From a bacterium UBP8_UBA817 (GTDB lineage: Bacteria > Margulisbacteria > Marinamargulisbacteria > CAMDBA01), in NCBI GenBank assembly GCA_945888995.1, contig CAMDBA010000002.1, positions 73,690-137,689 of the forward strand: DNA of 64,000 nucleotides, read 5' to 3'. A program made the translations under genes and the position numbers. The notes under the pieces are model-generated. The model saw only the letters and a list, made by a program, of their open reading frames with translations, did not search any database and was not told the DNA's origin. The stretch's first letter is position 1. Each line of letters starts with the position of its first letter. Shown here in pieces: positions 6,350 to 19,312 of the stretch.

Positions 6350-7855
6350 ATGATCTTTTCAATTAAAAAAGTGGATGTATTTAGTCAACAAACCGATGTT
6401 TTGGTAGCACCTGTATTTAAAAACGAAAGCCTTTTATCTTCCGATTTAAGAGTGCTGGATCGATTATTGGAAGGGAAGCTGTCGGAGCTTTTTGACGAAA
6501 AAACATTGACCGGAAAAGATAATGAAGTCGTGGTTATCCATGGATTTGGTGAATTAAAAGCCAAACGTCTTCTATTAGTCGGACTGGGCGAACGATCTGC
6601 TTTGACCTGTGAGAAATTACGTAAAGCAGCAGGTGAAATCGTGAGAAGAGCTAAAGGAGCAAAGGCAAAAAAAGTGGTCTGGTTATGGGATATCGGAACT
6701 CTTGATGCTGCAGATACTACGCAGGCCGTGGCCGAAGGCGCAGTCATGGGCGGATATACTTTTGACTGCTATAAAACCAAACCTGAAAAAAATGAAAAAC
6801 CCACCAAGATTAAAGAAATAGTATTAGCGGTACCTGATTCAGAACATATTTCTGCCATGGAATCGGCAGTTATAACCGGCCTGGTCATTGGGGAATCGGT
6901 TAACATCGCACGTGATTTAGCCAATATGCCGCCGAACGACTTAACCCCATCAGCGTTTGTAGATCTGGCCAAAAAATATCTGGATGGACAAAAATCGATT
7001 ATGATTGACGTTATTGATAAAAAGAAAGCAAAAGCTTTAGGAATGCACGCATTTTTAGGCGTAGGTCAGGGCACTGTCGAACCTTGTTATATGCTGGCGG
7101 TTTCCTATCATCCTATGAAAAATAAAAAGCCCATCGGGCTTGTGGGGAAAGGCGTCACATTTGATACCGGAGGTATTTCCATAAAGCCGTCAAAAGGAAT
7201 GGAAGAAATGAAAGGCGATATGAGTGGAGCAGCAGCAGTTCTGGGTACGGTGATCGCCTTGTCAAAGCTTAAAGTTCAGACCAATGTCTTAGCTGTAATG
7301 CCTTTGAGTGAGAATATGCCCTCCGGTTCTGCACAGCGTCCCGGTGATATCGTCGCTGCAATGAATGGGAAAACGATTGAGATTACCAACACCGATGCGG
7401 AAGGTAGACTGATTTTGGCCGATGCGCTATGTTATGCCGTTACTAAGGGGTGCTCTCAGTTAGTCGATATTGCGACTCTGACAGGTGCATGTCTGGTTGC
7501 CTTAGGAGATCAGGCAGCGGCAATACTCGGGTCTGATCAGGGCATGATTGATACCTTTCTAAAGGTTGGGGAGCGGACCGGCGAGCGTTTATGGCAATTG
7601 CCACTTTATGAAGAATATTTTGACTATATTAAATCGGATTCTGCGGATATGGTGAATTCATCCGAAAACCGGCTGGCAGGCACCGCCGTAGGTGCAATAT
7701 TCCTGAAGCAATTTGTCGGGGATACGCCGTGGGTGCACCTTGATATTGCCAGTATGATGCACTATTCCAAAGTATCCGGTTATACGGTCAAAGGGATGTC
7801 GGGTGTGGGGGTTCGGACCCTCGTTGGATATTGTCGCCAACAGTCTGGGCTTTAA
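6350..7855 (+). CDS. pepA: leucyl aminopeptidase (M17)
   Basis: 501 aa; NTDAEGRL signature and M17 catalytic core. Confidence 0.88.
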   Translation: MIFSIKKVDVFSQQTDVLVAPVFKNESLLSSDLRVLDRLLEGKLSELFDEKTLTGKDNEVVVIHGFGELKAKRLLLVGLGERSALTCEKLRKAAGEIVRRAKGAKAKKVVWLWDIGTLDAADTTQAVAEGAVMGGYTFDCYKTKPEKNEKPTKIKEIVLAVPDSEHISAMESAVITGLVIGESVNIARDLANMPPNDLTPSAFVDLAKKYLDGQKSIMIDVIDKKKAKALGMHAFLGVGQGTVEPCYMLAVSYHPMKNKKPIGLVGKGVTFDTGGISIKPSKGMEEMKGDMSGAAAVLGTVIALSKLKVQTNVLAVMPLSENMPSGSAQRPGDIVAAMNGKTIEITNTDAEGRLILADALCYAVTKGCSQLVDIATLTGACLVALGDQAAAILGSDQGMIDTFLKVGERTGERLWQLPLYEEYFDYIKSDSADMVNSSENRLAGTAVGAIFLKQFVGDTPWVHLDIASMMHYSKVSGYTVKGMSGVGVRTLVGYCRQQSGL

Positions 7856-9563
7856 ACCGGGTTTTACCCTTATGCTCGAATTTGAGCATCGGAACACCGG
7901 GCAGATATTCTTCCTGAGAAACAGCCGTGATACGCCGTAACGCATACAAAATGACGCCAATTTTTTTTGCTTGCTCGGCAATAATCCGGCTTACCCAAAC
8001 AAGTTTCGGGTCCAGATTGGCTTCCTGAGTGAGCTGTTGGGCGCCGAGAAGGATCGACGTGAGAGGTGAGTTAATCTCGTGATTGAGGGTAATGACGGTT
8101 TTAGTGACGGCGGCGAGTTTAAGCGTTTCTTCGATTTCTTTTACTTGTTGGGCAACCCGTTTTTCAAGAGTTTGGAGTAATTCTTTATTTTCCTGGTTGA
8201 GTTGTTGAAGGTGTTCAAACACCCGTACCCGTTCATACACGACCGTAATATGAGAGGCCAGTGTTTCGAGCAGCGTAATATCCTGTAGTGAATAGGCGTC
8301 CCCCGAATATTTTTTTTCTAGCGCCAGGAAGCAGAGTAGCTGGTTTTCCAAAATACCTGGAACAGCCAGTGAAATACGATTTTCTTTCAAATATTCTCTC
8401 AATGTACAATCGAATTCGGAGGATAGAATCACTTTCTTTTCGGAGAGTAAACGCGAAACCAATGGATCAGACTCATCCAACGTATCAGGCAGAGCGATAG
8501 ACGAACCGACATTTTTGCCCGCAAGATAGAAATTCTGAGATACAAAATGAGATCTCCGGTCTTCGACATAAAGGACAAGCGGCATCTCTAGCTCTTTTCT
8601 AAACAAGTCTAATAGGACATCGAGAAGATCCGCCAGGCTGACGCAGCCCGTTAAGCGGTGAGAGACTTTTTTTAAGACTTCCTGATAGTTATACCGGCCT
8701 TTCAAAAAGAGACTATCTGAGCTGGTTTGAATAACATATCGCACTTTTTGAAACGTTAAGATGATAACTGACGTATATAAAATCTGGAATAATAAAAATA
8801 GTGCGTCTGATCTGCGGCTCGAAAATTGATGGAAAATATATACCGACGAAAAGCTGATAAAGATATAAAAAGCGGCTGTTGTGGCCAATGCGACACTTCG
8901 GCTGATCATGATGGGGATTTCTACAAGCCGGTGCCGTGTAATAGCGATAAATGTGGTAATGACTAAAAACGATGTGAATAGCGGACTGAATTGATCAAAT
9001 TCCGTATATCCCACCATCGGCAAAATGATGCTTGCCGCAGCACATGAAAATCCTGACAAAATCGTGCCGGCTATAAAGTATTGAAGACGCATCGCATAAA
9101 TTCCCCGGTGCAATCTAATCTGTGCCATGGCTACTCCAACGATACCGGCAACGTAAGAAAGGAAATAAACCGCAAATATAGGACACCCGATCCCATAAGC
9201 TGTAGTAGAAAATGTCGGCGCGCTTTGAACAATGGCAGGTGTAACCGAAAGCCCGATCATCCAGATAGGGGGAATCCAAATGAGTCCTAATATCCACCCA
9301 TTGAGCCCGCTAAATTTTCTAGGATAAAAAAGTGCGAACATCAGAATGAATGGCGGAATAATACTTGCGATTACAAATGAAACTCTCGTCCAAAACAGGA
9401 TATTGGTAGAATTGTGGACCAGATAGACGGACGCAATCCACGCGGCAATTCCAAGCGCACCCAGAAAAAAAGAAATGTTGGCGGGATTGGTTCTGTGTTT
9501 ATAAAAAATAAGCCAACCAAGTAGACAATTGGCCGCGATTAAAAATAAATAGATATAGATCAT
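7788..9563 (-). CDS. multi-pass membrane sensor protein with GAF domain and histidine-kinase DHp/H-box but no HATPase_c domain
   Basis: 591 aa; ~8 predicted TM helices in first ~300 aa; central GAF-like region; C-terminal H-box LNHEINSPLTSI followed by only ~95 aa (two-helix DHp), no N/G1/F/G2 boxes; C-terminal 68 nt overlap the 3' end of pepA on the opposite strand. Confidence 0.6.
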   Translation of the reverse strand: MIYIYLFLIAANCLLGWLIFYKHRTNPANISFFLGALGIAAWIASVYLVHNSTNILFWTRVSFVIASIIPPFILMFALFYPRKFSGLNGWILGLIWIPPIWMIGLSVTPAIVQSAPTFSTTAYGIGCPIFAVYFLSYVAGIVGVAMAQIRLHRGIYAMRLQYFIAGTILSGFSCAAASIILPMVGYTEFDQFSPLFTSFLVITTFIAITRHRLVEIPIMISRSVALATTAAFYIFISFSSVYIFHQFSSRRSDALFLLFQILYTSVIILTFQKVRYVIQTSSDSLFLKGRYNYQEVLKKVSHRLTGCVSLADLLDVLLDLFRKELEMPLVLYVEDRRSHFVSQNFYLAGKNVGSSIALPDTLDESDPLVSRLLSEKKVILSSEFDCTLREYLKENRISLAVPGILENQLLCFLALEKKYSGDAYSLQDITLLETLASHITVVYERVRVFEHLQQLNQENKELLQTLEKRVAQQVKEIEETLKLAAVTKTVITLNHEINSPLTSILLGAQQLTQEANLDPKLVWVSRIIAEQAKKIGVILYALRRITAVSQEEYLPGVPMLKFEHKGKTRFKAQTVGDNIQRGSEPPHPTSL

Positions 9564-9754
9564 AAGTTATATTAAAGGGCCATAGTGAAAAATGAATATA
9601 TTGATACTATTATATCCTTTTTTTTCACAATTCGGATGGGTCATTTCATCGGTATAAAAAGGCCCGGTTTGCATCAAGAATGATCGATGTTTAAGGCGGA
9701 CTTATAAAGGGTAATTAGTTAAGAGCGATATCTTGTATAAAAGGTGGGGTGGGA

Positions 9755-10675
9755 ATGAATGTAATTAACTCAAGACAAGATTCTTCTCCGGATTTCTCAG
9801 ATTTTTTAAGCAGGCGGTTTCTATCTCAAGGGAATGGTGCCCAACCGACAACACCTTTAGTGGCGATGGCGGAAAAAATCGCAGCCCTGGAATCAGAATT
9901 GGCGGGCTATAAAAAAATGAAAGACGATGTCGTGAAGCAGTTAATCGAAATCCGTGAGAATAACCATGACATGAAAAATTATATGACACCTTTAAAGATT
10001 TTCCTGCAAATGGTATCAAAGGAAATTACAGACACTAAACTTCTTAAATTTATTGAGTCTCTTCGCTACGATACGCTGCCCAAAATAGAAGAAGTATATT
10101 TGAGTGTAGATAACAATGCGGCTGAGTTGGGCCAGACATCTAAAGTTTATACGAGGGTTTTAAATTTATCGGAAGAGTTAACACGGTTTTTAGAACATAT
10201 CGCCATTCAAAATCCAGGGATCACGATTGCCTCAGATATTCATTATACCGGGTTTATTCGAACCAGCACCCGGATTTTTTTTGATAAAGTATTGAAAAAT
10301 TGCATCATTAATTCCGTTCAGGCAATCCGTGAAAAACATATTGCGAACGGCAATGTCATAGTGGAATTACATGATGTGACGAGCTATCGGAATCGCTATA
10401 ACGATAAAGTTTGTTTCGATCAATTCGAAGAGTCCGATATTATGATCGTTTGCAGGGATAACGCTGGAGGTCTTCCTCAGCAACTGGAGCACCGATTTTT
10501 TGATATGGGATTTACGTATAATAAGCCGAGTGGGACAGGTGTGGGCACCGCTTCGGTCCGAACCTCGGTAGAGGAAAAGCTATTTGGCAAAATCGCACTT
10601 GAAAATAAAGAAGGTGCGGGCTTAGCCATTCATATGAAATTTTCAGGATCATTAGAAGATAAGAGCGCGTCATAA
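9755..10675 (+). CDS. soluble sensor histidine kinase (HisKA + HATPase_c)
   Basis: ORF begins with GTG at 9749; ATG at 9755 preceded by AAGGTGGGGTGGG RBS; coiled-coil N-terminus; H-box HDMKNYMTPL, N-box NCIINSVQAI, G1 DNAGGLP, F-box FFDMGFT, G2 GTGVGT. Confidence 0.75.
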   Translation: MNVINSRQDSSPDFSDFLSRRFLSQGNGAQPTTPLVAMAEKIAALESELAGYKKMKDDVVKQLIEIRENNHDMKNYMTPLKIFLQMVSKEITDTKLLKFIESLRYDTLPKIEEVYLSVDNNAAELGQTSKVYTRVLNLSEELTRFLEHIAIQNPGITIASDIHYTGFIRTSTRIFFDKVLKNCIINSVQAIREKHIANGNVIVELHDVTSYRNRYNDKVCFDQFEESDIMIVCRDNAGGLPQQLEHRFFDMGFTYNKPSGTGVGTASVRTSVEEKLFGKIALENKEGAGLAIHMKFSGSLEDKSAS

Positions 10676-10687
10676 AGGAGAATCGGT

Positions 10688-11923
10688 ATGTCTGTTGAAA
10701 CGATTGTGGTCATTGAAGAGGGCACGGCTATTGCGGATATGTTAGAAAAGGAACTGATGAAACCGCATCAGATTTTAACTTTTTTGGAAGCGAATGAGGC
10801 AACTTACCAAGCCATACAGGCCCGATATGATGATTTAAAAGAGTATGTGGCGCTTATCATAGTCCAGGAGACGGAATTGTTGGACGGAATCGCGGTTTTT
10901 CGTCAACTCTCTCAGAGATTGTATTTCCCGAATGTACTGATTGTGACTAATGACCGGGATCTGGAACGCAGTATCGTTGCTATGAAGGAAGGCTGTGTTG
11001 ATTACCTTATTGCACCTGGCATGGAGACACTCAAGGCTCATGTTGAAGATATCTGTAAAAAATCGATTCATAAGATATCGGATCACTATGACAAATTCGA
11101 AGTCCAAAACGAACTCGTATACAAACGAACTCTAACGCGTGAAGTAGAGCTTAAAACCTATATCGATGAAAACCGTGTGTTGACCCAGGAAGAACGCAGC
11201 GCTATTCGGTATGCCAGTGGTCCGGAAGTCGGCAAGACCTGGGAATCCGTTATTGATGACATCGAATTATCTTCAACCCGAAAACCGCATGTCCTAATTG
11301 TTGACGACGAAGAAATGCAGAGGGAAAGTCTGGCAGAATATTTATGCGATGACTATGAAACGGTAATGGTGGGCAGCTCAGAAGCCGCACTGGCCTATAT
11401 GGCGGAGCATCCGATTGATGTGGCGCTATTGGATATTCGGATGGAAGGAATGCCCGGAGACGAATTGCTTAGGCAGATCCGGCAGATTTCACCGTTGATA
11501 TCGGTTATTATGGTGACGGCTTATCCTGATACCGCTACGGCCGTTCAAACATTGGGAGATGGCGCGGTTGAATTTCTCAATAAGCAATCCTACACGGAAG
11601 AGGCTTTATTGGCGGCGGTGAAACGTGCTGCTGAAATGAAATATTATCGGGATCATTATATTTGTCAGGATTTGCTGTTCGAACGCCGGCTGAAATTGTG
11701 GAAAAAATATTACATGGGAGGGTGTCATAAAGCGCAGATCCTACTCAGGGATTTTTATGTGTTTTTTCCTGAATTTTGGGTTGAATCTGTTGATGAGCAA
11801 CTTCCGATAAAGCCGGATTATGTTTTAGGTGACTTGGATGAATTCGTTGAAAAGATGAGAACGGTTTATGAAAAAGAAGAAGCCAGAGTAGAAGAAAAAG
11901 TGATGCAGGAGAATGCCCTTTAA
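10688..11923 (+). CDS. response regulator with degenerate N-terminal receiver, canonical receiver and uncharacterised C-terminal domain
   Basis: 411 aa; starts 13 nt after the kinase stop; second domain has DD (LIVDDEE), phospho-Asp (ALLDIRM), Thr (MVTAY), Lys (FLNKQ); first REC-like domain lacks the phospho-acceptor Asp and the conserved Lys; last ~95 aa have no recognisable HTH. Confidence 0.7.
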   Translation: MSVETIVVIEEGTAIADMLEKELMKPHQILTFLEANEATYQAIQARYDDLKEYVALIIVQETELLDGIAVFRQLSQRLYFPNVLIVTNDRDLERSIVAMKEGCVDYLIAPGMETLKAHVEDICKKSIHKISDHYDKFEVQNELVYKRTLTREVELKTYIDENRVLTQEERSAIRYASGPEVGKTWESVIDDIELSSTRKPHVLIVDDEEMQRESLAEYLCDDYETVMVGSSEAALAYMAEHPIDVALLDIRMEGMPGDELLRQIRQISPLISVIMVTAYPDTATAVQTLGDGAVEFLNKQSYTEEALLAAVKRAAEMKYYRDHYICQDLLFERRLKLWKKYYMGGCHKAQILLRDFYVFFPEFWVESVDEQLPIKPDYVLGDLDEFVEKMRTVYEKEEARVEEKVMQENAL

Positions 11924-12063
11924 ATAATCGGTTTTTTTTATATCATAGGGCATCCGTATTTACGACGTACCCCGTTTTTTGCAGTAGCATAATAAAATAT
12001 GAAATATTCTCCTCTCCGATACGATACTTACTGATGCGGATAGGATGGTAGGACTAATACCTT

Positions 12064-15000
12064 ATGGATGCGCAATACCATATTACTGAAATATTATTTG
12101 AAAATAATCAGGTCAGCCTATGTAGAGGGATAATGTCGGGTGCTCCTTGCTTAATTAAGCGGCTTAAACCGCTGGAAGATTCCCGCAGAGAAGTGTCTCA
12201 GCTTGCGTACGAATACCGAATTTCTAAGTCGTTTGAATCGGACTACTGCTTGGATCCTGTTACAGTAGAGATGTTCGATCACACACCGGCCATTGTTTAT
12301 TCCTATCATGAAGCGGATTTATTAAGTTGTTTAATGGATAAGCGGATATTTTCCGTGTCTGAAGTGCTGAGCCTCGGAATAGAAATCCTGAAAGCACTCA
12401 CGGAAATTCACGGAAATTTTGTAACGCACCGTCTGCTCAGCCCTCATTCGATCTTTTGGAATGGGAATACCAAAAAAGTAAAGATAATTAATTTCGGATC
12501 TGCGGTTTCGTTTTTACAGGATTCGATTTCGTATAAAGCTGCATTATTGGCCGATGATCGGGATCGAGCTTATATCGCGCCTGAATGTTTAAAAGAAGGG
12601 TCGTCCTATGACTTTCGTGCTGACTTTTTTTCGCTGGGAATTCTTTTGTATGAATTATTTTTAGGGCATCCGCCGGATTATCATAGCGCTATGTCGTCTT
12701 TATATGACAGCAAGCCCACCATCCCCCGTGCCATATCGGACATCGTTCAAAAGTTATGCTCATTTAATATCCAGGATCGGTATAAAAGTGCGCAAGGCGC
12801 TTTATATGATTTGGAAAAATGTGCGGAATTGCTTCAACCGACCGGTTCTATTGCCTATTTTTACCCGGGGCAGGAAGATGTGCCGACGTTTCTAATGTTT
12901 CCGGAAAATGTATACGGACGCGAAGCGGAAGATAAATTCTTAAGTTTGATCATTAAATCTATTTGTTATGGGCAGCCGAAATGTTGTCTGGTATCAGGGT
13001 ATTCGGGGATCGGAAAAACGACGCTGATTATGCAGGCTTTGCAATCGGAAACCCTCCAATATTGCCATGCCTTGAAAGGAAAGGGCGAACAAACTGGAGA
13101 GCGTCGGCCATATGGGTTATTCAGACGTGCGTTTACTGAATTTGTATTTAAAATTTTACAAGCGGGTCAAACCTCCGTGTCCTATTGGCGAGATCATATC
13201 CTAAAAGCAGTCGGGGAACTTAATGGCCAGGTAATTGTGAATGTCATACCCGAGTTTGAATTTATTCTCGGATCACAGCCTGCTTTATATACCATCACCT
13301 CTCAAGAGGCTCAAAACCGTCTGGAGGAAACCTTTTGCTGTTTATTTCATGCGCTTTCAAATGTAGAGCATCCATGTCTTTTTTTTGCGGATGATTTGCA
13401 TTGGGCGGATGAAGAGTCGTTACGCCTGTTAAGCGTGATCGTTAATCAAAGAATGCCCTATTTTGGCCTGATCGGCACCTATCGAAGTAATGAAATTTCG
13501 ATGGATAACCCTCTTAATACTTGGCAAGATAACAGTCTGATTCCGATTGAGACGATCGTCCTGCTACCTCTGCATTTACATGATGTTAAATGCTATATGG
13601 AAGAATTATTAAATTGCACTTCCGATCAGATCGATGTCTTTTCATTTATGGTGTACGAAAAGACAAAAGGAAATCCGTTTTTTATGAAGCAGTTTTTGCG
13701 ATCGCTATATGATCAGAAGCTGCTTTATTTTGATATCAAAACCCAGAGCTGGTTATGGGACCAATCCGCGATCAGTAAAATTACCGTATCGGAAAATGTG
13801 GCCGATATGCTAGAAGAACAGCTCAATTATCTTTCTGAACCAACCAAGTCGCTGCTTATGATGGCCGCTTGCTTAGGTACAATGTTTGATATCAAAACTT
13901 TAAGTAATATTTGCTACCGTCCTTTTATTCAATTATCGTCTGAAATATGGGAAGCCTGTCAGAAAGGCCTTCTTATTCCGCTCAACGACATTGATATTTT
14001 AGATATCGATATTCACCATGTCGATACGACAAAGTGGTATCGCTTTGCCCACGATAAGATACAAGGAGTGGCCTACTCGCTTATTCCAGCGGATGAAAAG
14101 CCGGAACTTCACCTTAAAATTGGCCGGAATTTGAAAAAATTCTATGTTGAAAATCAATCGGACGAATGCCTGTTTGCAGCCGTTTATAACCTAAATTTAG
14201 CGACCCATCTTATACCGGATGATCGGGAGAAATATGAGCTGGCCCGTCTTAATTTCATGGCCGGCGAAAAATCAAAAGAAGAGTTAGGATTTAAATCAGC
14301 CAAAGATTATTTTTTGACTGCCACGGGTCTTTTAAGGGCAACATATTGGAATACGGAGTTTGAATTCTTAATGTCGGTATGGCTTAATTATGCGGAGACA
14401 TTAGCAGTGTGTAATGATTTTAAAGGGGCCGAGCGCACTTACCGAAAACTACTCGACTATGCCAAAGAGCCTCTCGATAAAGTGCGAATATATATCAAAA
14501 TGGTAGTGCTCTATACGGCGTCTATCCAATATCCTCTGGCCATTGAAAGCGGATTAGACGGCTTGGCGTTACTGGGTTTGACGGTTCCCAAATATTGCAG
14601 GAAATGGCTTTTAATTGTCGAAGTATTAAAGTTTCAGATTTATCATAGGCGAACCGATGTTCATGAATTGATTCACCGGCCGATTTTTAAAGATAAGTCT
14701 TCGATCTTATTAATCGATATGATGAATGCGCTAGCGGTTCCGATATATTTTAGCAATCAAATCCTGGGCCAAATATTATTGTTACGGGTATTGAATTATT
14801 CATTGCGCCGGAATTGCGTCACAACGGCGTCATTTTTGTATCTTGCGGTAGGTATCGTGATCAATCATATTTTGCAGAAACCTTGGTGGGGCTATCAATT
14901 TGCAAATTTAGCGATTGATCTTAACGAAAAATATCATTTGGTCCAACAAAAATGCAAAACTCTTGAATTATTAGGCACGTTTTTTATGCATTGGGTAAAG

Positions 15001-15864
15001 CCTGCGTACGAAGCCTTGGAGGTTTTGGAACGTGCTTATTCAGCAGGTCTTGAAACGGGCGACTATTATTTTGCAGGTCTTGCTGCGTCTAATTTAATGG
15101 GAATCTCAATGATTTGCGGGATTCATCTGGAAACCATTTTAAAGATGGGCCACCGCGCGGATGAGGTGTTTGTGAAACAATCCTTGTCGGATGTGACTCG
15201 CAAGGTAGATTTACAAAAAGATCTGATTGAAGCCTTGATGACGAGTCAGGAAAAAACACTCGCGATTTTTTGTAATGGATATATTTTAAACGTAATAAAC
15301 CGCACAGGGAATCAAACCGCGATGGCGTATTATTATTCACTTAAACAAATGATCTTTTATCTTTTTGATCATCCCGATGCTCTCGAAGCGGTGGATCATT
15401 CCCAGGAATATCATATTTATTCCGCAGGCTTATACTATTACCCTGAGCATCGTTTCTTTCAAACACTTATTTTAATTCGGCATTACCGAAAGGCCACATG
15501 GTTTAAGAAAGTCCAGTTTCTTAAAATTATTCGGCGTAATATCGCTCAGCTTCAACGGTGGGCAAAGCATTCACCTATTAATTTTCGGCATAAAGGGCTA
15601 ATTTTGCAGGCTGAATTAATGAGGCTCCAAGACAAAAAAACAGAAGCTGAAGGATTTTATAAGCAAGCATTATCCGACTTTACTGGGGATTACTTTGCGC
15701 ATAATAAAGCCATTGCCTCAGAATGCTATGGCCAGTTTTGTCTGGAAAATGGAAAGCTAGAGCAAGCTTCCCTATATATTAAGCAATCCAGATGTCTCTA
15801 TTATCTCTGGGGTGCCACTGCCAAAGTCGAAGAAATGGACAAACGGTACCCCGGTTTTTTATAA
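12064..15864 (+). CDS. STAND-type NTPase with N-terminal Ser/Thr pseudokinase domain, AAA_16 ATPase and C-terminal TPR-like repeats (PknK/MalT-like architecture)
   Basis: 1266 aa; kinase fold present (VAIK-like CLIKRL, APE, DFFSLG subdomain IX) but HRD->HRL and DFG->NFG, Gly-loop degenerate; Walker A GYSGIGKTT, Walker B LFFADDLHWADEES; long helical/TPR-like C-terminal half. Confidence 0.7.
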   Translation: MDAQYHITEILFENNQVSLCRGIMSGAPCLIKRLKPLEDSRREVSQLAYEYRISKSFESDYCLDPVTVEMFDHTPAIVYSYHEADLLSCLMDKRIFSVSEVLSLGIEILKALTEIHGNFVTHRLLSPHSIFWNGNTKKVKIINFGSAVSFLQDSISYKAALLADDRDRAYIAPECLKEGSSYDFRADFFSLGILLYELFLGHPPDYHSAMSSLYDSKPTIPRAISDIVQKLCSFNIQDRYKSAQGALYDLEKCAELLQPTGSIAYFYPGQEDVPTFLMFPENVYGREAEDKFLSLIIKSICYGQPKCCLVSGYSGIGKTTLIMQALQSETLQYCHALKGKGEQTGERRPYGLFRRAFTEFVFKILQAGQTSVSYWRDHILKAVGELNGQVIVNVIPEFEFILGSQPALYTITSQEAQNRLEETFCCLFHALSNVEHPCLFFADDLHWADEESLRLLSVIVNQRMPYFGLIGTYRSNEISMDNPLNTWQDNSLIPIETIVLLPLHLHDVKCYMEELLNCTSDQIDVFSFMVYEKTKGNPFFMKQFLRSLYDQKLLYFDIKTQSWLWDQSAISKITVSENVADMLEEQLNYLSEPTKSLLMMAACLGTMFDIKTLSNICYRPFIQLSSEIWEACQKGLLIPLNDIDILDIDIHHVDTTKWYRFAHDKIQGVAYSLIPADEKPELHLKIGRNLKKFYVENQSDECLFAAVYNLNLATHLIPDDREKYELARLNFMAGEKSKEELGFKSAKDYFLTATGLLRATYWNTEFEFLMSVWLNYAETLAVCNDFKGAERTYRKLLDYAKEPLDKVRIYIKMVVLYTASIQYPLAIESGLDGLALLGLTVPKYCRKWLLIVEVLKFQIYHRRTDVHELIHRPIFKDKSSILLIDMMNALAVPIYFSNQILGQILLLRVLNYSLRRNCVTTASFLYLAVGIVINHILQKPWWGYQFANLAIDLNEKYHLVQQKCKTLELLGTFFMHWVKPAYEALEVLERAYSAGLETGDYYFAGLAASNLMGISMICGIHLETILKMGHRADEVFVKQSLSDVTRKVDLQKDLIEALMTSQEKTLAIFCNGYILNVINRTGNQTAMAYYYSLKQMIFYLFDHPDALEAVDHSQEYHIYSAGLYYYPEHRFFQTLILIRHYRKATWFKKVQFLKIIRRNIAQLQRWAKHSPINFRHKGLILQAELMRLQDKKTEAEGFYKQALSDFTGDYFAHNKAIASECYGQFCLENGKLEQASLYIKQSRCLYYLWGATAKVEEMDKRYPGFL

Positions 15865-15872
15865 GAATTAGT

Positions 15873-16589
15873 CTAGGAATGTTCGCCGGTTAAGACGAGT
15901 TCCGAAACGTGTGTTGAAACTTCTTTATTAGAATCCAATGTTAAAACCGTGTAGCGGTTAGACCAGACCGACCCTGTGATTTGAGCTGAAATATTAGGGA
16001 ATTGGTTTCTCAGGAAGCTGGATGAAAGCGATTTTAAACCCTTTGTAAATTCATGGACACTTGATTTAGGATCGATGTCCAGAACCATTGTAATTTCAGT
16101 ACCACTGACTTGCAGGTGATAAAGGGCATAAGTTAATTCTGAAATCGTTTCTTCAATTAATTTTTGAAGCGCATCTCTGACCGGCTCATCTGCCAAGATC
16201 GATTTTTCTGATTTTGTTTTCCAAGAGATTAAGTAGGTGCATTTATAAACGACTTCGTCTTTTTCATAAACGCCTGCAGGAACTGCGAATGAACTTGCCT
16301 GGAAGGTAGGTGTTCCGTTTTCCTGATGCAGCGCGTCATAGAAAATAAGATCCGGTTTGATACGCCCGAAAAACGCGGCTGCAATAAATTGCTTTTTTTC
16401 ATCTTCGGTCAGGCTGAGCGTTTCAGCGAGTTTTTGACAAATTGGAAAAGTAGGCGGGGTATAGCCTAATTCGAGTTTTCGGATATAACCGTCAGATTTT
16501 TGTATAGCTTCGGCTAAGTCAACTTTATACAAATCTCTATCTAATCTAAATTTTCTTAGCAAATCGGCAAATGGAGGTGGCTTTATCAT
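15873..16589 (-). CDS. XRE-family helix-turn-helix protein fused to uncharacterised C-terminal domain
   Basis: ORF extends to 16670, but AAAGGAAA RBS precedes the ATG at 16589 (MIKPPPFADLLRKFRLDRDLYKVDLAEAIQKSDGYIRKLELG = HTH_3/Cro-C1 type); ~170-aa C-terminal region with no recognisable motifs. Confidence 0.6.
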   Translation of the reverse strand: MIKPPPFADLLRKFRLDRDLYKVDLAEAIQKSDGYIRKLELGYTPPTFPICQKLAETLSLTEDEKKQFIAAAFFGRIKPDLIFYDALHQENGTPTFQASSFAVPAGVYEKDEVVYKCTYLISWKTKSEKSILADEPVRDALQKLIEETISELTYALYHLQVSGTEITMVLDIDPKSSVHEFTKGLKSLSSSFLRNQFPNISAQITGSVWSNRYTVLTLDSNKEVSTHVSELVLTGEHS

Positions 16590-16706
16590 AATAATTTCCT
16601 TTTCATTAACGGGGTCTTTGATATTACTACTTCGACTCATGCCAGCACGACAGTAAATATTTACTACCATTTTTGGTATGGTTTTTCAACTAGGAAAAAT
16701 AAACGC

Positions 16707-16735
16707 TTGACAAAACCCTCTCGGTTCGGTACTAA
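16707..16735 (+). promoter_or_regulatory. sigma70-like promoter (TTGACA-17nt-TACTAA)
   Basis: TTGACA at 16707-16712, 17-nt spacer, TACTAA at 16730-16735; lies in the divergent intergenic region upstream of small ORF 16740..16931. Confidence 0.35.
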
Positions 16736-16739
16736 TTAA

Positions 16740-16931
16740 ATGCACTATATTTCAGAAGTGGAGGATGGCAGAGTGGGTAGGAAAAAAATGAAAAAAGAAG
16801 ATCTCATTTTACGGGAGCTCATAAAAAAGTTATTGGTTGAGCATATCCGGGGCCGGGAAAAAGGCGTTTCCGACATTTCTTTTAGGATGCCGACGGAGCT
16901 ACATTACTGTCGGGTAGGTGCTCGCGGATAA
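16740..16931 (+). CDS. small hypothetical protein (47-63 aa, Lys/Arg-rich)
   Basis: ORF behind the consensus promoter; internal ATG (MKKEDLILRELIKKLL...) has a GGTAGGA RBS-like sequence ~7 nt upstream; no recognisable family; ends 1 nt before the convergent FAD-oxidoreductase stop. Confidence 0.25.
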   Translation: MHYISEVEDGRVGRKKMKKEDLILRELIKKLLVEHIRGREKGVSDISFRMPTELHYCRVGARG

Positions 16932-16932
16932 T

Positions 16933-17967
16933 TTATAGGATAAACCGGTTTAGGTTGACGTCCTTGTCAATGGGGTGGGAGCAAAGTAAGTGCTGGCATA
17001 GTTGACGGGCATAGTAGGGCGCTACCATAAATCCTTTGGATCCAAATCCGTTTAATACGCCGATTTTGGGCCGATGTTTATGGAAGCCTACAATCGGATG
17101 GTTATCCCGGCTGATGGGTCTAACGCCGGCTTCTTGAACAAGAAGAGTCGACGGTGGAATCCATTCATCTAAAGAAGCATGTAGTTTTTCATAGCCAGTT
17201 CGACTCGGGGCCCAGTCGGCTGTATCCCAGTCATAAGTTGAACCGTATTTGAAAGCGCCGTCCCCAATCGGCAATAAAATATGGTCTCGGCAGAAAATAT
17301 GGGTTTGAGGCAACGTTGTATTTTTGATGGTCCAGACTTCTCCTTTTGCATGTCGAAACCGGATGTTATCGAAGAATGGATTATGAATGATTTGAGAACC
17401 TTCGCAAAAAATCACGCGCCGTGCCCGGATATCTCTCCATTCGATGTGATCGGTTTCTTCTCTGAAGTCTGAGAATGAAAATTGATCGGAAATAAGGAGG
17501 TGCCGGTTTGAAAAATAATCAGTAAATGCGGTTAAAAGCGATTCCGATAGAATGCTGAAACTGGATGTGGTTTCAATGCCTTCTAAAGGTAAACGGAATC
17601 CGGGCATTATGCCGGTCGATCCAACAATGTAACGGTGAAAATCCGGGTCATCGCGACGCTTGGGCCATAGCGCTTCAGTGATAGGGTCCCGAATAAACCG
17701 GATAACGTTTTTACGGGTGATCAGCCGACGACAAAAAACCGTTTCGAGGCTTTCGTAGAATTGTTTTGCGAAGGGGATCAGCAGCTCTGCTTTCCAGGAC
17801 AGAGTCAAGCGTTTTCCCGATAAAGGATCAACAATGCCACCGGCTATTTTGGACGAAGAAAATCGGTGCCGATTGTCAATAATGGCGAATTTAGCGGATG
17901 TCTGGGAAAGGTAATACCCTAACGTAGAGCCCGCTAGTCCTTGCCCGACAATCAAGACATCAAGCAT
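16933..17967 (-). CDS. FAD-dependent oxidoreductase (DAO/ThiO-like family)
   Basis: 344 aa; N-terminal dinucleotide fold VLIVGQGLAGS; C-terminal RPISRDNHPIVG and GFGSKGFMVAP motifs typical of the DAO family. Confidence 0.6.
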   Translation of the reverse strand: MLDVLIVGQGLAGSTLGYYLSQTSAKFAIIDNRHRFSSSKIAGGIVDPLSGKRLTLSWKAELLIPFAKQFYESLETVFCRRLITRKNVIRFIRDPITEALWPKRRDDPDFHRYIVGSTGIMPGFRLPLEGIETTSSFSILSESLLTAFTDYFSNRHLLISDQFSFSDFREETDHIEWRDIRARRVIFCEGSQIIHNPFFDNIRFRHAKGEVWTIKNTTLPQTHIFCRDHILLPIGDGAFKYGSTYDWDTADWAPSRTGYEKLHASLDEWIPPSTLLVQEAGVRPISRDNHPIVGFHKHRPKIGVLNGFGSKGFMVAPYYARQLCQHLLCSHPIDKDVNLNRFIL

Positions 17968-19312
17968 CCAGCGTCGTTAATGAGTCCAGAGGCGGGAGTT
18001 CTACCGAGTCCAGGATAGGGGGCGATTCAGGCGTTGGAAGGTCTTGAACCGTGCGAAGTTTTCGCTCGATGGTCCGTGATTTTTGTGTGGCGGTTTCAAT
18101 AGTATTGCTGGCTTCCTGGAGTTTTTTCTGAGTTTTATCCAAGAGGGTGCCGAATTTTGAAAACTCGGATTTGACTGTACTTAATAATCCCCAGACTTCC
18201 GAAGAGCGCTTTTCAATCGCAAGGGTGCGAAATCCCATTTGAAGGCTGTTCAGAATAGCCGTTAAGGTAGTCGGTCCTGCAATAATGACGCGATATTCTT
18301 TTTGGAGAGTATCGTGAAGGCCGGGCCGTCGTAAGACTTCGGCGTATAGCCCTTCGATTGGCAGGAATAGAATGCCAAAATCAGTTGTGTGCGGTGGATC
18401 GATATATTTATCCCGCATATTTTTAGCTTCGCCTTTGATTCGTTGTTCTAAAAACTTGGCGGCTTCTTCTGCCAGGATCGGATCGGCTAATTCCTGAGCA
18501 TCTAAAAGCCTGATATAGGGGTCTTGAGGGAACTTGGCATCGATAGGTAGCCAAATAGGTTCTTCCGCATTTCCTTTGGTTCCTGGAAGTTTTATCGCAT
18601 ATTCAACCCGGTCGGCGCTGCCCGGTTTTGTTGCGACGTTCATTCCGTATTGATCCATCGTTAATAATTGTTCTAAGATTGCCCCTAACTGAATTTCGCC
18701 CCAGATGCCGCGGGTTTTGACATTTGTCAGGACTTTTTTTAGATCTCCGACACCGGTGGCCAGAACCTGCATTTCTCCTAATCCTTTATGAACGAGTTCA
18801 AGACGCTCGCTAACCAATTTAAATGAATCACCGAGACGTTTTTCCAAAGTAGCATGAAGCTTTTCATCAACTGTCACACGCATTTGTTCGAGTTTTTTAT
18901 TATTGTCATCCTGAAGCCCGAGAATCCGTTTTTCGATGGTTTCTCGCATCATTTCCAGTTTCTTTTCGTTGGTTTGCGTGAGGGTATCGAGTTTTTGGGA
19001 CACGATATCCAGCTGGTTTTTTTGAACGGTCGAAATGTCTTTCATCCAGTTTGCTAATGATTGATTAAACGTGGTTAAGCTAGTGGCCAATTCTTGTCTG
19101 GAAGACTTAAAAGAGACTTGAGATTCTTCCCGTGCTTTAGTCAGTTCGTCACCTAGAATTTTTTCAACACGCTCCAATTGTTTTTCGAAAATCGCTAACT
19201 TAGTCTCAACGGCAGCTTGTGTGCTATGAGCGGTATTGCTTCTGAAAATAAGGACGGATATGAGGCCTGCAAGTAAGCAAGTTTGTGTGATCACCATGAT
19301 CCAAATAGGCAT
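17960..19312 (-). CDS. rmuC: DNA recombination protein RmuC
   Basis: 450 aa; N-terminal TM anchor, long coiled coil, C-terminal RmuC-like core (GILFLPIEGLYAEVLR...IIAGPTTLTAIL); 8-nt overlap with downstream oxidoreductase. Confidence 0.6.
   Translation of the reverse strand: MPIWIMVITQTCLLAGLISVLIFRSNTAHSTQAAVETKLAIFEKQLERVEKILGDELTKAREESQVSFKSSRQELATSLTTFNQSLANWMKDISTVQKNQLDIVSQKLDTLTQTNEKKLEMMRETIEKRILGLQDDNNKKLEQMRVTVDEKLHATLEKRLGDSFKLVSERLELVHKGLGEMQVLATGVGDLKKVLTNVKTRGIWGEIQLGAILEQLLTMDQYGMNVATKPGSADRVEYAIKLPGTKGNAEEPIWLPIDAKFPQDPYIRLLDAQELADPILAEEAAKFLEQRIKGEAKNMRDKYIDPPHTTDFGILFLPIEGLYAEVLRRPGLHDTLQKEYRVIIAGPTTLTAILNSLQMGFRTLAIEKRSSEVWGLLSTVKSEFSKFGTLLDKTQKKLQEASNTIETATQKSRTIERKLRTVQDLPTPESPPILDSVELPPLDSLTTLDA

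Follow-up and report, generated by a model that had tools for sequence, protein, structure and literature searches.

The signalling locus described here lies in a 64,000-nt stretch of contig CAMDBA010000002.1 (assembly GCA_945888995.1) of the bacterium UBP8_UBA817, a member of the Marinamargulisbacteria; this whole stretch is called the window throughout. Five consecutive open reading frames (ORFs), named g1 to g5, had been considered in an original prediction to form one signalling module, and ORF calling has found all five at the coordinates given there. What they contain is, as had been supposed, a genuine two-component core with unusual parts, namely a sensor lacking a kinase, a kinase lacking a sensor, a regulator that includes a pseudo-receiver, and a STAND protein bearing a pseudokinase, to which an XRE-type protein is adjacent. 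The genes and the intergenic region between the first two of them are listed below.

g1, 7788..9563, minus strand: membrane sensor of 591 aa
g1-g2 divergent intergenic region, 9564..9754: presumably contains the promoters of both genes, judging from the sequence
g2, 9755..10675, plus strand, from an ATG with an AAGGTGG ribosome-binding site: histidine kinase of 306 aa (308 aa if the GTG at 9749 is the start)
g3, 10688..11923, plus strand: response regulator of 411 aa
g4, 12064..15864, plus strand: pseudokinase-STAND protein of 1266 aa
g5, 15873..16589, minus strand, from an ATG with an AAGGA ribosome-binding site: XRE-type protein of 238 aa (265 aa if read from 16670)

The gap between g2 and g3 is of 12 nt, and g4 follows g3 on the same strand after 140 nt. 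Genes g4 and g5 are convergent, with 8 nt between their stop codons. The identical gene arrangement is present on several metagenomic contigs that are 98-100% identical to this one.

In the product of g2 the only domain detected by Pfam is HATPase_c (E 6e-8), and no sensor domain is found. An H-box with His73 (in the 308-aa numbering) was located by sequence in the DHp domain, and the boxes of the catalytic ATPase (CA) domain are complete when aligned to the kinases of the family: N (KNCIINS), G1 (DNAGG), F (FFDMGF) and G2 (GTGVG). The match to AtoS-like kinases runs from the His to the C-terminus, and the first 57 residues show little conservation in the orthologue carried by a second contig, L004. 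Because HATPase_c is the sole domain and the N-terminus is so poorly conserved, g2 is classified on sequence grounds as a minimal, sensor-less cytoplasmic histidine kinase, in accordance with the kinase without sensor that had been announced.

The g3 protein is composed of a pseudo-receiver (residues 5-112), a linker, a true receiver (202-311) and a C-terminal region (320-411). Alignments with PDB structures show that the first receiver (REC) domain lacks an acidic residue where the phospho-acceptor would stand, and that an Ala replaces the conserved Lys; this domain is not an intact receiver. The second REC domain is complete, with D206, D207, D249, T277 and K299, and matches Response_reg with an E of 5e-28. 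The roughly 90 residues of the C-terminal region have no family match; a pseudo-receiver regulator with an unassigned output had indeed been foreseen. Within this C-terminus, a stretch of 23 residues (FYVFFPEFWVxSVDEQLPIKPDY) is almost invariant in the 59% identical orthologue P0122.

Among 5.8 billion protein clusters only two full-length relatives of g3 are present, its own 99% cluster and P0122 itself. The latter is encoded on L004, the only more distant relative found, where an orthologue of g2 (58%) stands directly upstream of it; the two gene pairs share 58-59% amino-acid identity and 66% DNA identity. Since L004 keeps the g2 orthologue upstream and has nuoA-nuoB, not g4, directly downstream of the g3 orthologue, g2-g3 is a conserved pair and the adjacency of g3 and g4 is not conserved. 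The attributes of a two-component system that sequence can show are found in this pair, namely kinase motifs in g2, receiver residues in the second REC domain of g3, adjacency and co-conservation, and the phosphorylation of g3 Asp249 by g2 is strongly implied as a prediction.

Further searches with g3 returned only generic matches. The GTDB species representatives, scanned with the g3 alignment, gave a REC-level match in Treponema as the sole return and seem not to include the lineage, and a scan of metagenomes, for which REC-generic peptide patterns had been picked, gave REC-level matches only. Exact-match g3 peptide patterns gave zero matches in one genome per species of 185,579 GTDB species. 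A candidate extension into the g3 C-terminus, L026, was rejected and is an ordinary REC-HD-GYP regulator. The lineage is seemingly known from metagenome assemblies only (the ENA ERZ2728xxxx series and Logan ERR3719160).

The membrane sensor g1 matches HisKA_7TM in Pfam (E 2e-11), together with weak matches to GAF and HisKA and none to HATPase_c, which upholds the claim of a kinase without ATPase. The seven-transmembrane (7TM) part spans residues 6-216 and the GAF domain about 309-441, followed by DHp with a canonical H-box (LNH495EINSPLT) and, at residues 552-559, by a C-terminal motif (EYLPGVPM). An exhaustive search with g1 retrieves thousands of 7TM kinases, most of them of about 700 aa and with HATPase_c. 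Three proteins of 612-614 aa (P0216, P0224 and P0319) also have no HATPase_c, align with g1 to its very end, and share with it both the H-box His and a C-terminal EY[LM]PGVxM, a motif absent from all the others of the 149 top matches. The full combination of HisKA_7TM, GAF, H-box His and tail motif without HATPase_c is therefore found in g1 and these three proteins, and the ATPase-less state of g1 is not unique to it but common to a clade. No description of this CA-less 7TM-GAF-DHp clade was found in the literature searched.

The loci of the clade relatives (L007-L011 and L092) contain an NtrC-type regulator, one to three CA-less paralogues and one complete 7TM kinase, and no gene like g4 or g5. 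They are syntenic with each other, lying between serA and recO, and count as one independent example, not three. The juxtaposition of a CA-less sensor with a complete kinase and a regulator is common to these loci and to the window, where g2 and g3 take these places.

Some other features of g1 and its relatives may be recorded. The coordinates of the serA-recO operon are 4182-9605 in L007, 6607-15872 in L009 and 899-8297 in L092, and the operon also carries a small secreted protein of 92-94 aa; the small secreted proteins of these operons show no similarity to the C-terminus of g3 or the N-terminus of g2. Kinase-less sensors arrayed in front of a single kinase seem to be undescribed. The tail after the C-terminal motif has 33 residues in g1 vs. 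10-16 in the clade relatives and is antisense to the end of pepA, the two genes being convergent with a 68-nt overlap (7788-7855) in which the last 68 nt of g1 lie on the 3' end of pepA. For the 7TM-GAF part of g1, the nearest relative other than itself is P0192 (702 aa), in which a SpoIIE/PP2C phosphatase output replaces DHp; the same membrane sensor module is therefore reused with different outputs.

In g4, Pfam detects Pkinase (E 8e-22), AAA_16 (E 3e-24) and TPR-like helices reaching the C-terminus; the kinase-like domain occupies residues 16-260 and the AAA_16/COG3899 NTPase residues 283-461. Three of the four key catalytic positions of the kinase are changed (HRD to HRL, Asn to Ser129 and DFG to NFG), K32 being kept. 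The Walker A (GYSGIGKT) and Walker B (FFADD) motifs are intact, and their K318 and D443/D444 are kept in 116-118 of the 119 family members. The HRL, Ser and NFG changes beside intact Walker motifs bear out the description of g4 as a STAND protein with a dead kinase. Neither a GAF nor an output domain was detected in it.

Homologues of g4 are 25-30% identical to it over about 100% of its length, and the alignments extend to its residues 1254-1266 in all 119 family members. These proteins continue for a median of 576 residues beyond the end of g4, with a GAF or PAS domain and an output that can be a histidine kinase, GGDEF, cyclase, STAS, SpoIIE or sigma-54, and g4 ends at about position 1300 of the family, at the boundary before GAF. 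Among the 120 best matches, output-less proteins are limited to g4's own 98% cluster and P0043; the 3' end of the P0043 gene (1321 aa; L005 1669-5980) is overlapped by a DUF772 transposase gene, and this protein was probably truncated by an insertion sequence. Identity drops from 98% straight to 29% among the matches listed, below which short fragments of g4 orthologues could hide. A truncation of g4 by g5 was also considered and rejected, as the expected GAF or histidine kinase remnants, searched for downstream of g4 in 15000-17200, were not found in decayed form either.

Records of g4 homologues on plasmids bear names such as 'ATP-binding sensor histidine kinase', 'multi-sensor hybrid multi-kinase' and 'trifunctional serine/threonine-protein kinase/ATP-binding protein/sensor histidine kinase'. 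From its domain content, g4 itself is an output-less member of the CP1/COG3899 family with a truncated architecture, and not 'trifunctional'. Degenerate kinase motifs are carried by 69 of the 119 family members, so that the judgement that each of the five components is individually atypical was overstated for g4, as it was for g1 with its clade-wide trait. The hypothesis that g1 and g2 are fission products of a CP1 'trifunctional' gene was rejected: the similarities are generic (25-30% over GAF-DHp or CA), the best relatives of g1 are 7TM kinases, and the DHp domain of g2 is unlike that of the CP1 family.

The C-terminal domain of g5, which the original prediction had called unknown, has been recognized. 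An XRE-type helix-turn-helix (HTH_3) at residues 9-66 is followed by an IS200-type Y1 domain (Y1_Tnp) at 101-223, with an E of 8e-15 in Pfam and of 5e-11 to ISHp608 TnpA. The HUH motif is lost, E165-I-T167 aligning with the H-I-H of ISHp608 TnpA. In the helix of the catalytic Tyr, STH227VSEL of g5 stands by eye opposite KQY127IENQ of TnpA, the HMMER alignment stopping before this helix, and the last 25 residues of g5 contain no Tyr. A word-index search of the 5.8 billion clusters found no homologue of g5 besides itself; in the plasmid collection the only matches are plain TnpA proteins, encoded by annotated tnpA genes and 30-32% identical to its C-terminal half. In the surroundings of g5, which is single-copy in the window, no tnpB, repeats or hairpins were detected. 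Apparently, g5 is a constrained orphan XRE regulator with an inactivated Y1 transposase fold, and it looks like a case of domestication of this fold; it probably stands outside the signalling unit.

As regards base composition, the five-gene region has a GC content of 41.4% vs. 45.0% for the rest of the window, so that the AT-richness that had been noticed by eye is confirmed, although slight. Among all sliding 9.1-kb segments the GC minimum falls on this region, only 1.6% of the segments being as low, and in tetranucleotide distance the region ranks in the top 1.8%. For single genes the overall GC gives z values of -0.5 to -2.1, whereas synonymous codon usage is ordinary in comparison with the rest of the window (z -1.1 to +1.1). 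No tRNA, integrase or flanking repeats were detected around the region as marks of an island. The horizontal acquisition that had been suggested is thus weakly favoured by GC and not by codon usage, and the DNA of the region looks accessory, without sign of recent transfer.

Selection was estimated as the ratio of non-synonymous to synonymous polymorphism (pN/pS) against the strain variant L093. The values are 0.33 for g1 and 0.26 for g4, with 0.02-0.04 for the reference genes argH and pepA; g5 shows 9 synonymous and 0 non-synonymous differences (pN/pS 0), and the differences in g2 and g3 are too few for a ratio, their 58-59% identity being kept in L004. From these ratios for g1, g4 and g5, and from the conservation of g2-g3 in another organism, all five genes appear to be functional, under a looser constraint of the sort that signalling proteins usually show. 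A recent truncation of g1 to a pseudogene, hinted at by the overlap with pepA, was considered and rejected in view of the clade motif, the pN/pS of g1 and the uniform length of its listed full-length strain variants, which are all of 591 aa.

The immediate neighbours of the five genes are the following.

pepA, 6350-7855, plus strand: one flank of the cluster
47-codon ORF (MKKEDLILRELIKK...), 16708-16931, plus strand: start of the far flank
DAO-family FAD oxidoreductase gene, 16933-17967, minus strand: between the cluster and rmuC
rmuC, 17960-19312, minus strand: after the DAO-family gene

Of the two flanking genes originally named, pepA is a direct neighbour and rmuC is not, the DAO-family gene lying between. 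The 47-codon ORF is preceded by a good promoter-like site (TTGACA-17-TACTAA), and its 3' end coincides with the end of the DAO gene; it is called as a gene on the source contigs and has no family match, and in a 98% strain variant the loss of its stop codon extends it to 51 codons. The remaining genes of the window are of a housekeeping nature and include the arg genes, ndk, def, leuA, UPF0182, uvrC and rho, as well as the hem genes, a transketolase gene and a SurA-like gene. Scans of the region for promoters and terminators gave results at chance level, and no promoter site is claimed; an Rfam search of it gave no match, and a PHROGs search returned transposase, HTH and REC and nothing further.

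From these data, the stretch can be described as a lineage-specific signalling patch amid housekeeping genes, in which three evolutionary units are found rather than one five-gene system, a description to which we would give an even chance of being right. Within it we favour, with moderate confidence, a split-sensor two-component system of g1, g2 and g3, to which g4 may contribute a further input and from which g5 stands apart. In this system g2 would autophosphorylate on His73 and then transfer the phosphoryl group to Asp249 of g3, whose output would reside in the pseudo-receiver and the 90-residue orphan C-terminus; as no DNA-binding domain is detectable, this output is probably of the protein-protein type. 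The sensing missing in g2 would be provided by the divergently oriented g1, which most probably tunes the amount of phosphorylated g3 to a membrane signal or a GAF ligand. It might achieve this through g3, whose signal-gated phosphatase or phosphotransfer partner it would be, or through trans-phosphorylation by the ATPase domain of g2. An action of g1 on the phosphorylation of the regulator is suggested because its His and H-box have been kept and its ATPase lost, and because its clade adjoins a kinase and a regulator. As for g4, it would be an NTP-dependent STAND switch whose kinase domain is dead, acting via a separate partner because it has an intact NTPase switch and neither GAF nor output of its own; by its position, the adjacent g2 or g3 is the obvious candidate for this role, a weak indication. 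For its part, g5 would be independent, nothing tying it to the other units.

Several points weigh against the split-sensor system. The link of g1 to g2-g3 is a putative one, and the three genes have been seen side by side in no more than this species-level lineage, the L004 contig breaking off shortly before g2. Between the DHp domain of g1 and that of g2 no similarity is detectable (E 2.1), so that a g1-g2 heterodimer of the RetS-GacS or ChrS-HrrS type is not favoured by the sequences, and the partner kinase in the loci of the g1 clade is a 7TM paralogue, not a g2-like protein. The place of g4 beside g3 is taken in L004 by nuoA-nuoB, and a 'split trifunctional kinase' is to be regarded as a functional analogy with no fission history behind it, given that neither the GAF-DHp part of g1 nor the CA domain of g2 is specifically related to the output part of CP1. 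Moreover, the AlphaFold2 model of g3, built from a three-sequence alignment, has a mean predicted local distance difference test (pLDDT) score of 46 and is unusable.

Some of these points would be explained if only g2 and g3 cooperated and g1, g4 and g5 were independent genes gathered at a permissive site with their partners elsewhere, which we regard as plausible, if rather doubtful. The sole conserved pairing is that of g2 with g3, the DHp domains are unrelated, a paralogous 7TM kinase like the partner of the g1 clade might exist elsewhere in the genome, and a promoter-like match is present in the 140-nt gap before g4. However, a sensor-less g2 and an ATPase-less g1 each need a partner and have a divergent promoter region in common, and in the single independent example the CA-less members stand directly beside kinase and regulator. 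A wider version of the split-sensor system, according to which the ATPase-less 7TM-GAF-DHp proteins are a distinct and undescribed class of membrane sensors that plug into a separate kinase, and g2 integrates both g1 and g4, the CP1 function being carried out in trans, is in our opinion unlikely.

It is distinctly unlikely that the five genes together make up a single module, a multi-input phosphorelay or switch with its two-component output gated by the STAND NTPase and with the XRE protein as transcriptional arm. The tight cluster in a housekeeping region, on the stretch of lowest GC of the window, the complementary nature of the parts (a sensor without kinase, a kinase without sensor, a STAND protein without output), the usual fusion of the g4 family to histidine kinase outputs, and the integrity and constraint of all five ORFs in the strain variant speak for it. 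Nevertheless, the arrangement occurs only in the 98-100% identical contigs, nuoA rather than g4 comes after g3 in L004, genes resembling g4 or g5 are missing beside the relatives of g1, and g5, itself an orphan, lies on the opposite strand and converges with g4. The co-inheritance of five genes as one module, at the centre of the original prediction, is in this way largely contradicted by their distribution in other genomes: outside the near-identical contigs the five-gene set was not found together, the pairing of g2 with g3 is firm, and that of g1 with a kinase and a regulator is drawn by analogy. No described match was found for the exact gene combination, as had been stated, and yet the five-gene 'module' is probably not a unit, and the locus does not represent a new kind of system.

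Alternatively, g1 could be a phosphotransferase similar to Spo0B or ChpT in a relay leading from g2 to the receiver of g3, then to His495 of g1 and to an unlinked terminal regulator. Phosphotransferases based on DHp are an established class, of which Spo0B and ChpT are members, and the His and H-box are kept by g1 and its clade despite the absence of the ATPase. The locus does offer a possible His carrier in g1 His495, but it has one phosphorylatable receiver, as the first REC domain of g3 is devoid of the Asp, no second regulator lies nearby, and a 7TM-GAF sensor would be unusual on a pure relay protein; on balance, this relay is very improbable. Lastly, an anti-phage defence system of the Avs-like STAND type formed by g4 with or without g5, the two-component genes being bystanders, can be set aside as extremely improbable: low GC, a transposase-derived neighbour and PADLOC/NCBIfam matches of g4 to the Mad6, PD-T4-6, MkoA and PglW kinases could suggest it and the defence switch formerly proposed, but these matches are all confined to the generic kinase domain (16-260) and far below the cut-offs (92 vs. 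460 bits for MAD6), no full-length defence model matches g4, its kinase is catalytically degenerate and accompanied by no effector domain, its full-length homologues are signalling proteins, and the neighbouring genes in the window are housekeeping genes with no defence genes among them.

If the reading of g1, g2 and g3 as one split-sensor system is true, it would represent a natural two-component case with sensing, catalysis and output on separate proteins, and one more entry among the multi-kinase networks, of which few are listed so far. With it, a small and tractable system would be at hand for the study of the role of an ATPase-less DHp domain, be it phosphatase, trans phosphoryl acceptor or scaffold. 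Similarly, g4, a rare output-less member of CP1/COG3899 and a free-standing input module next to a candidate partner, could help to reveal by what means the NTPase and pseudokinase portion governs an output. Of all these observations, the ATPase-less 7TM-GAF-DHp clade offers the most useful lead.

In comparison with known systems, and with the balance of evidence about level, the locus can be seen as a two-component system split over two proteins, beside an output-less CP1/COG3899 pseudokinase and an XRE orphan whose Y1 domain is dead. The pair g2-g3 resembles a classical two-component system in its catalytic motifs, its operon arrangement and its pairwise conservation, and it differs in the lack of an input domain in the kinase, in the extra pseudo-receiver and in the family-less C-terminus of the regulator. 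Spo0B and ChpT are soluble four-helix-bundle His phosphotransferases, sensor-less but still in possession of a degenerate CA-like domain. As predicted from its sequence, g1 has in common with them a His domain without a functional ATPase, but its input consists of 7TM and GAF, and of CA not even a remnant is left. With TnpA of IS200/IS605, g5 shares the Y1 fold in its C-terminal half; it differs in the replaced HUH motif, the apparently replaced catalytic Tyr and the absence of tnpB. In the classification of the wider TnpA-Y1 family, which includes an HTH-fused subclass 2.1, the additional domains described are C-terminal and of the DnaA-like, HTH_23 or HTH_28 type, and the catalytic core is retained (PMC6006769), whereas g5 carries an XRE-type HTH at its N-terminus. 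The CP1 family of kinases and pseudokinases, which is linked to COG3899, consists for about 40% of pseudokinases and has a role that is almost wholly unknown (2025 review, PMC12599244). With its kinase-like domain, NTPase and TPR-like helices, g4 corresponds to the N-terminal roughly 1300 residues of these proteins, and the decay of its kinase motifs is common in the family; it differs in that it stops exactly before GAF and has no output. Finally, kinase-deficient histidine kinases that act through another histidine kinase are known from ChrS_CA-fs with HrrS (PMC9491836) and from RetS with GacS (PMC8498467). In these cases a sensor with a DHp domain but incapable of autophosphorylation modulates signalling via a partner kinase or regulator; g1 has a DHp domain with its His, has no ATPase and adjoins a complete kinase, although the heterodimer mechanism of these pairs is not indicated for it, its DHp being unlike that of g2. 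RetS keeps its CA domain, which g1 does not have, and the ChrS variant is of laboratory origin, whereas g1 belongs to a natural clade with a clean loss of CA and a C-terminal motif of its own.

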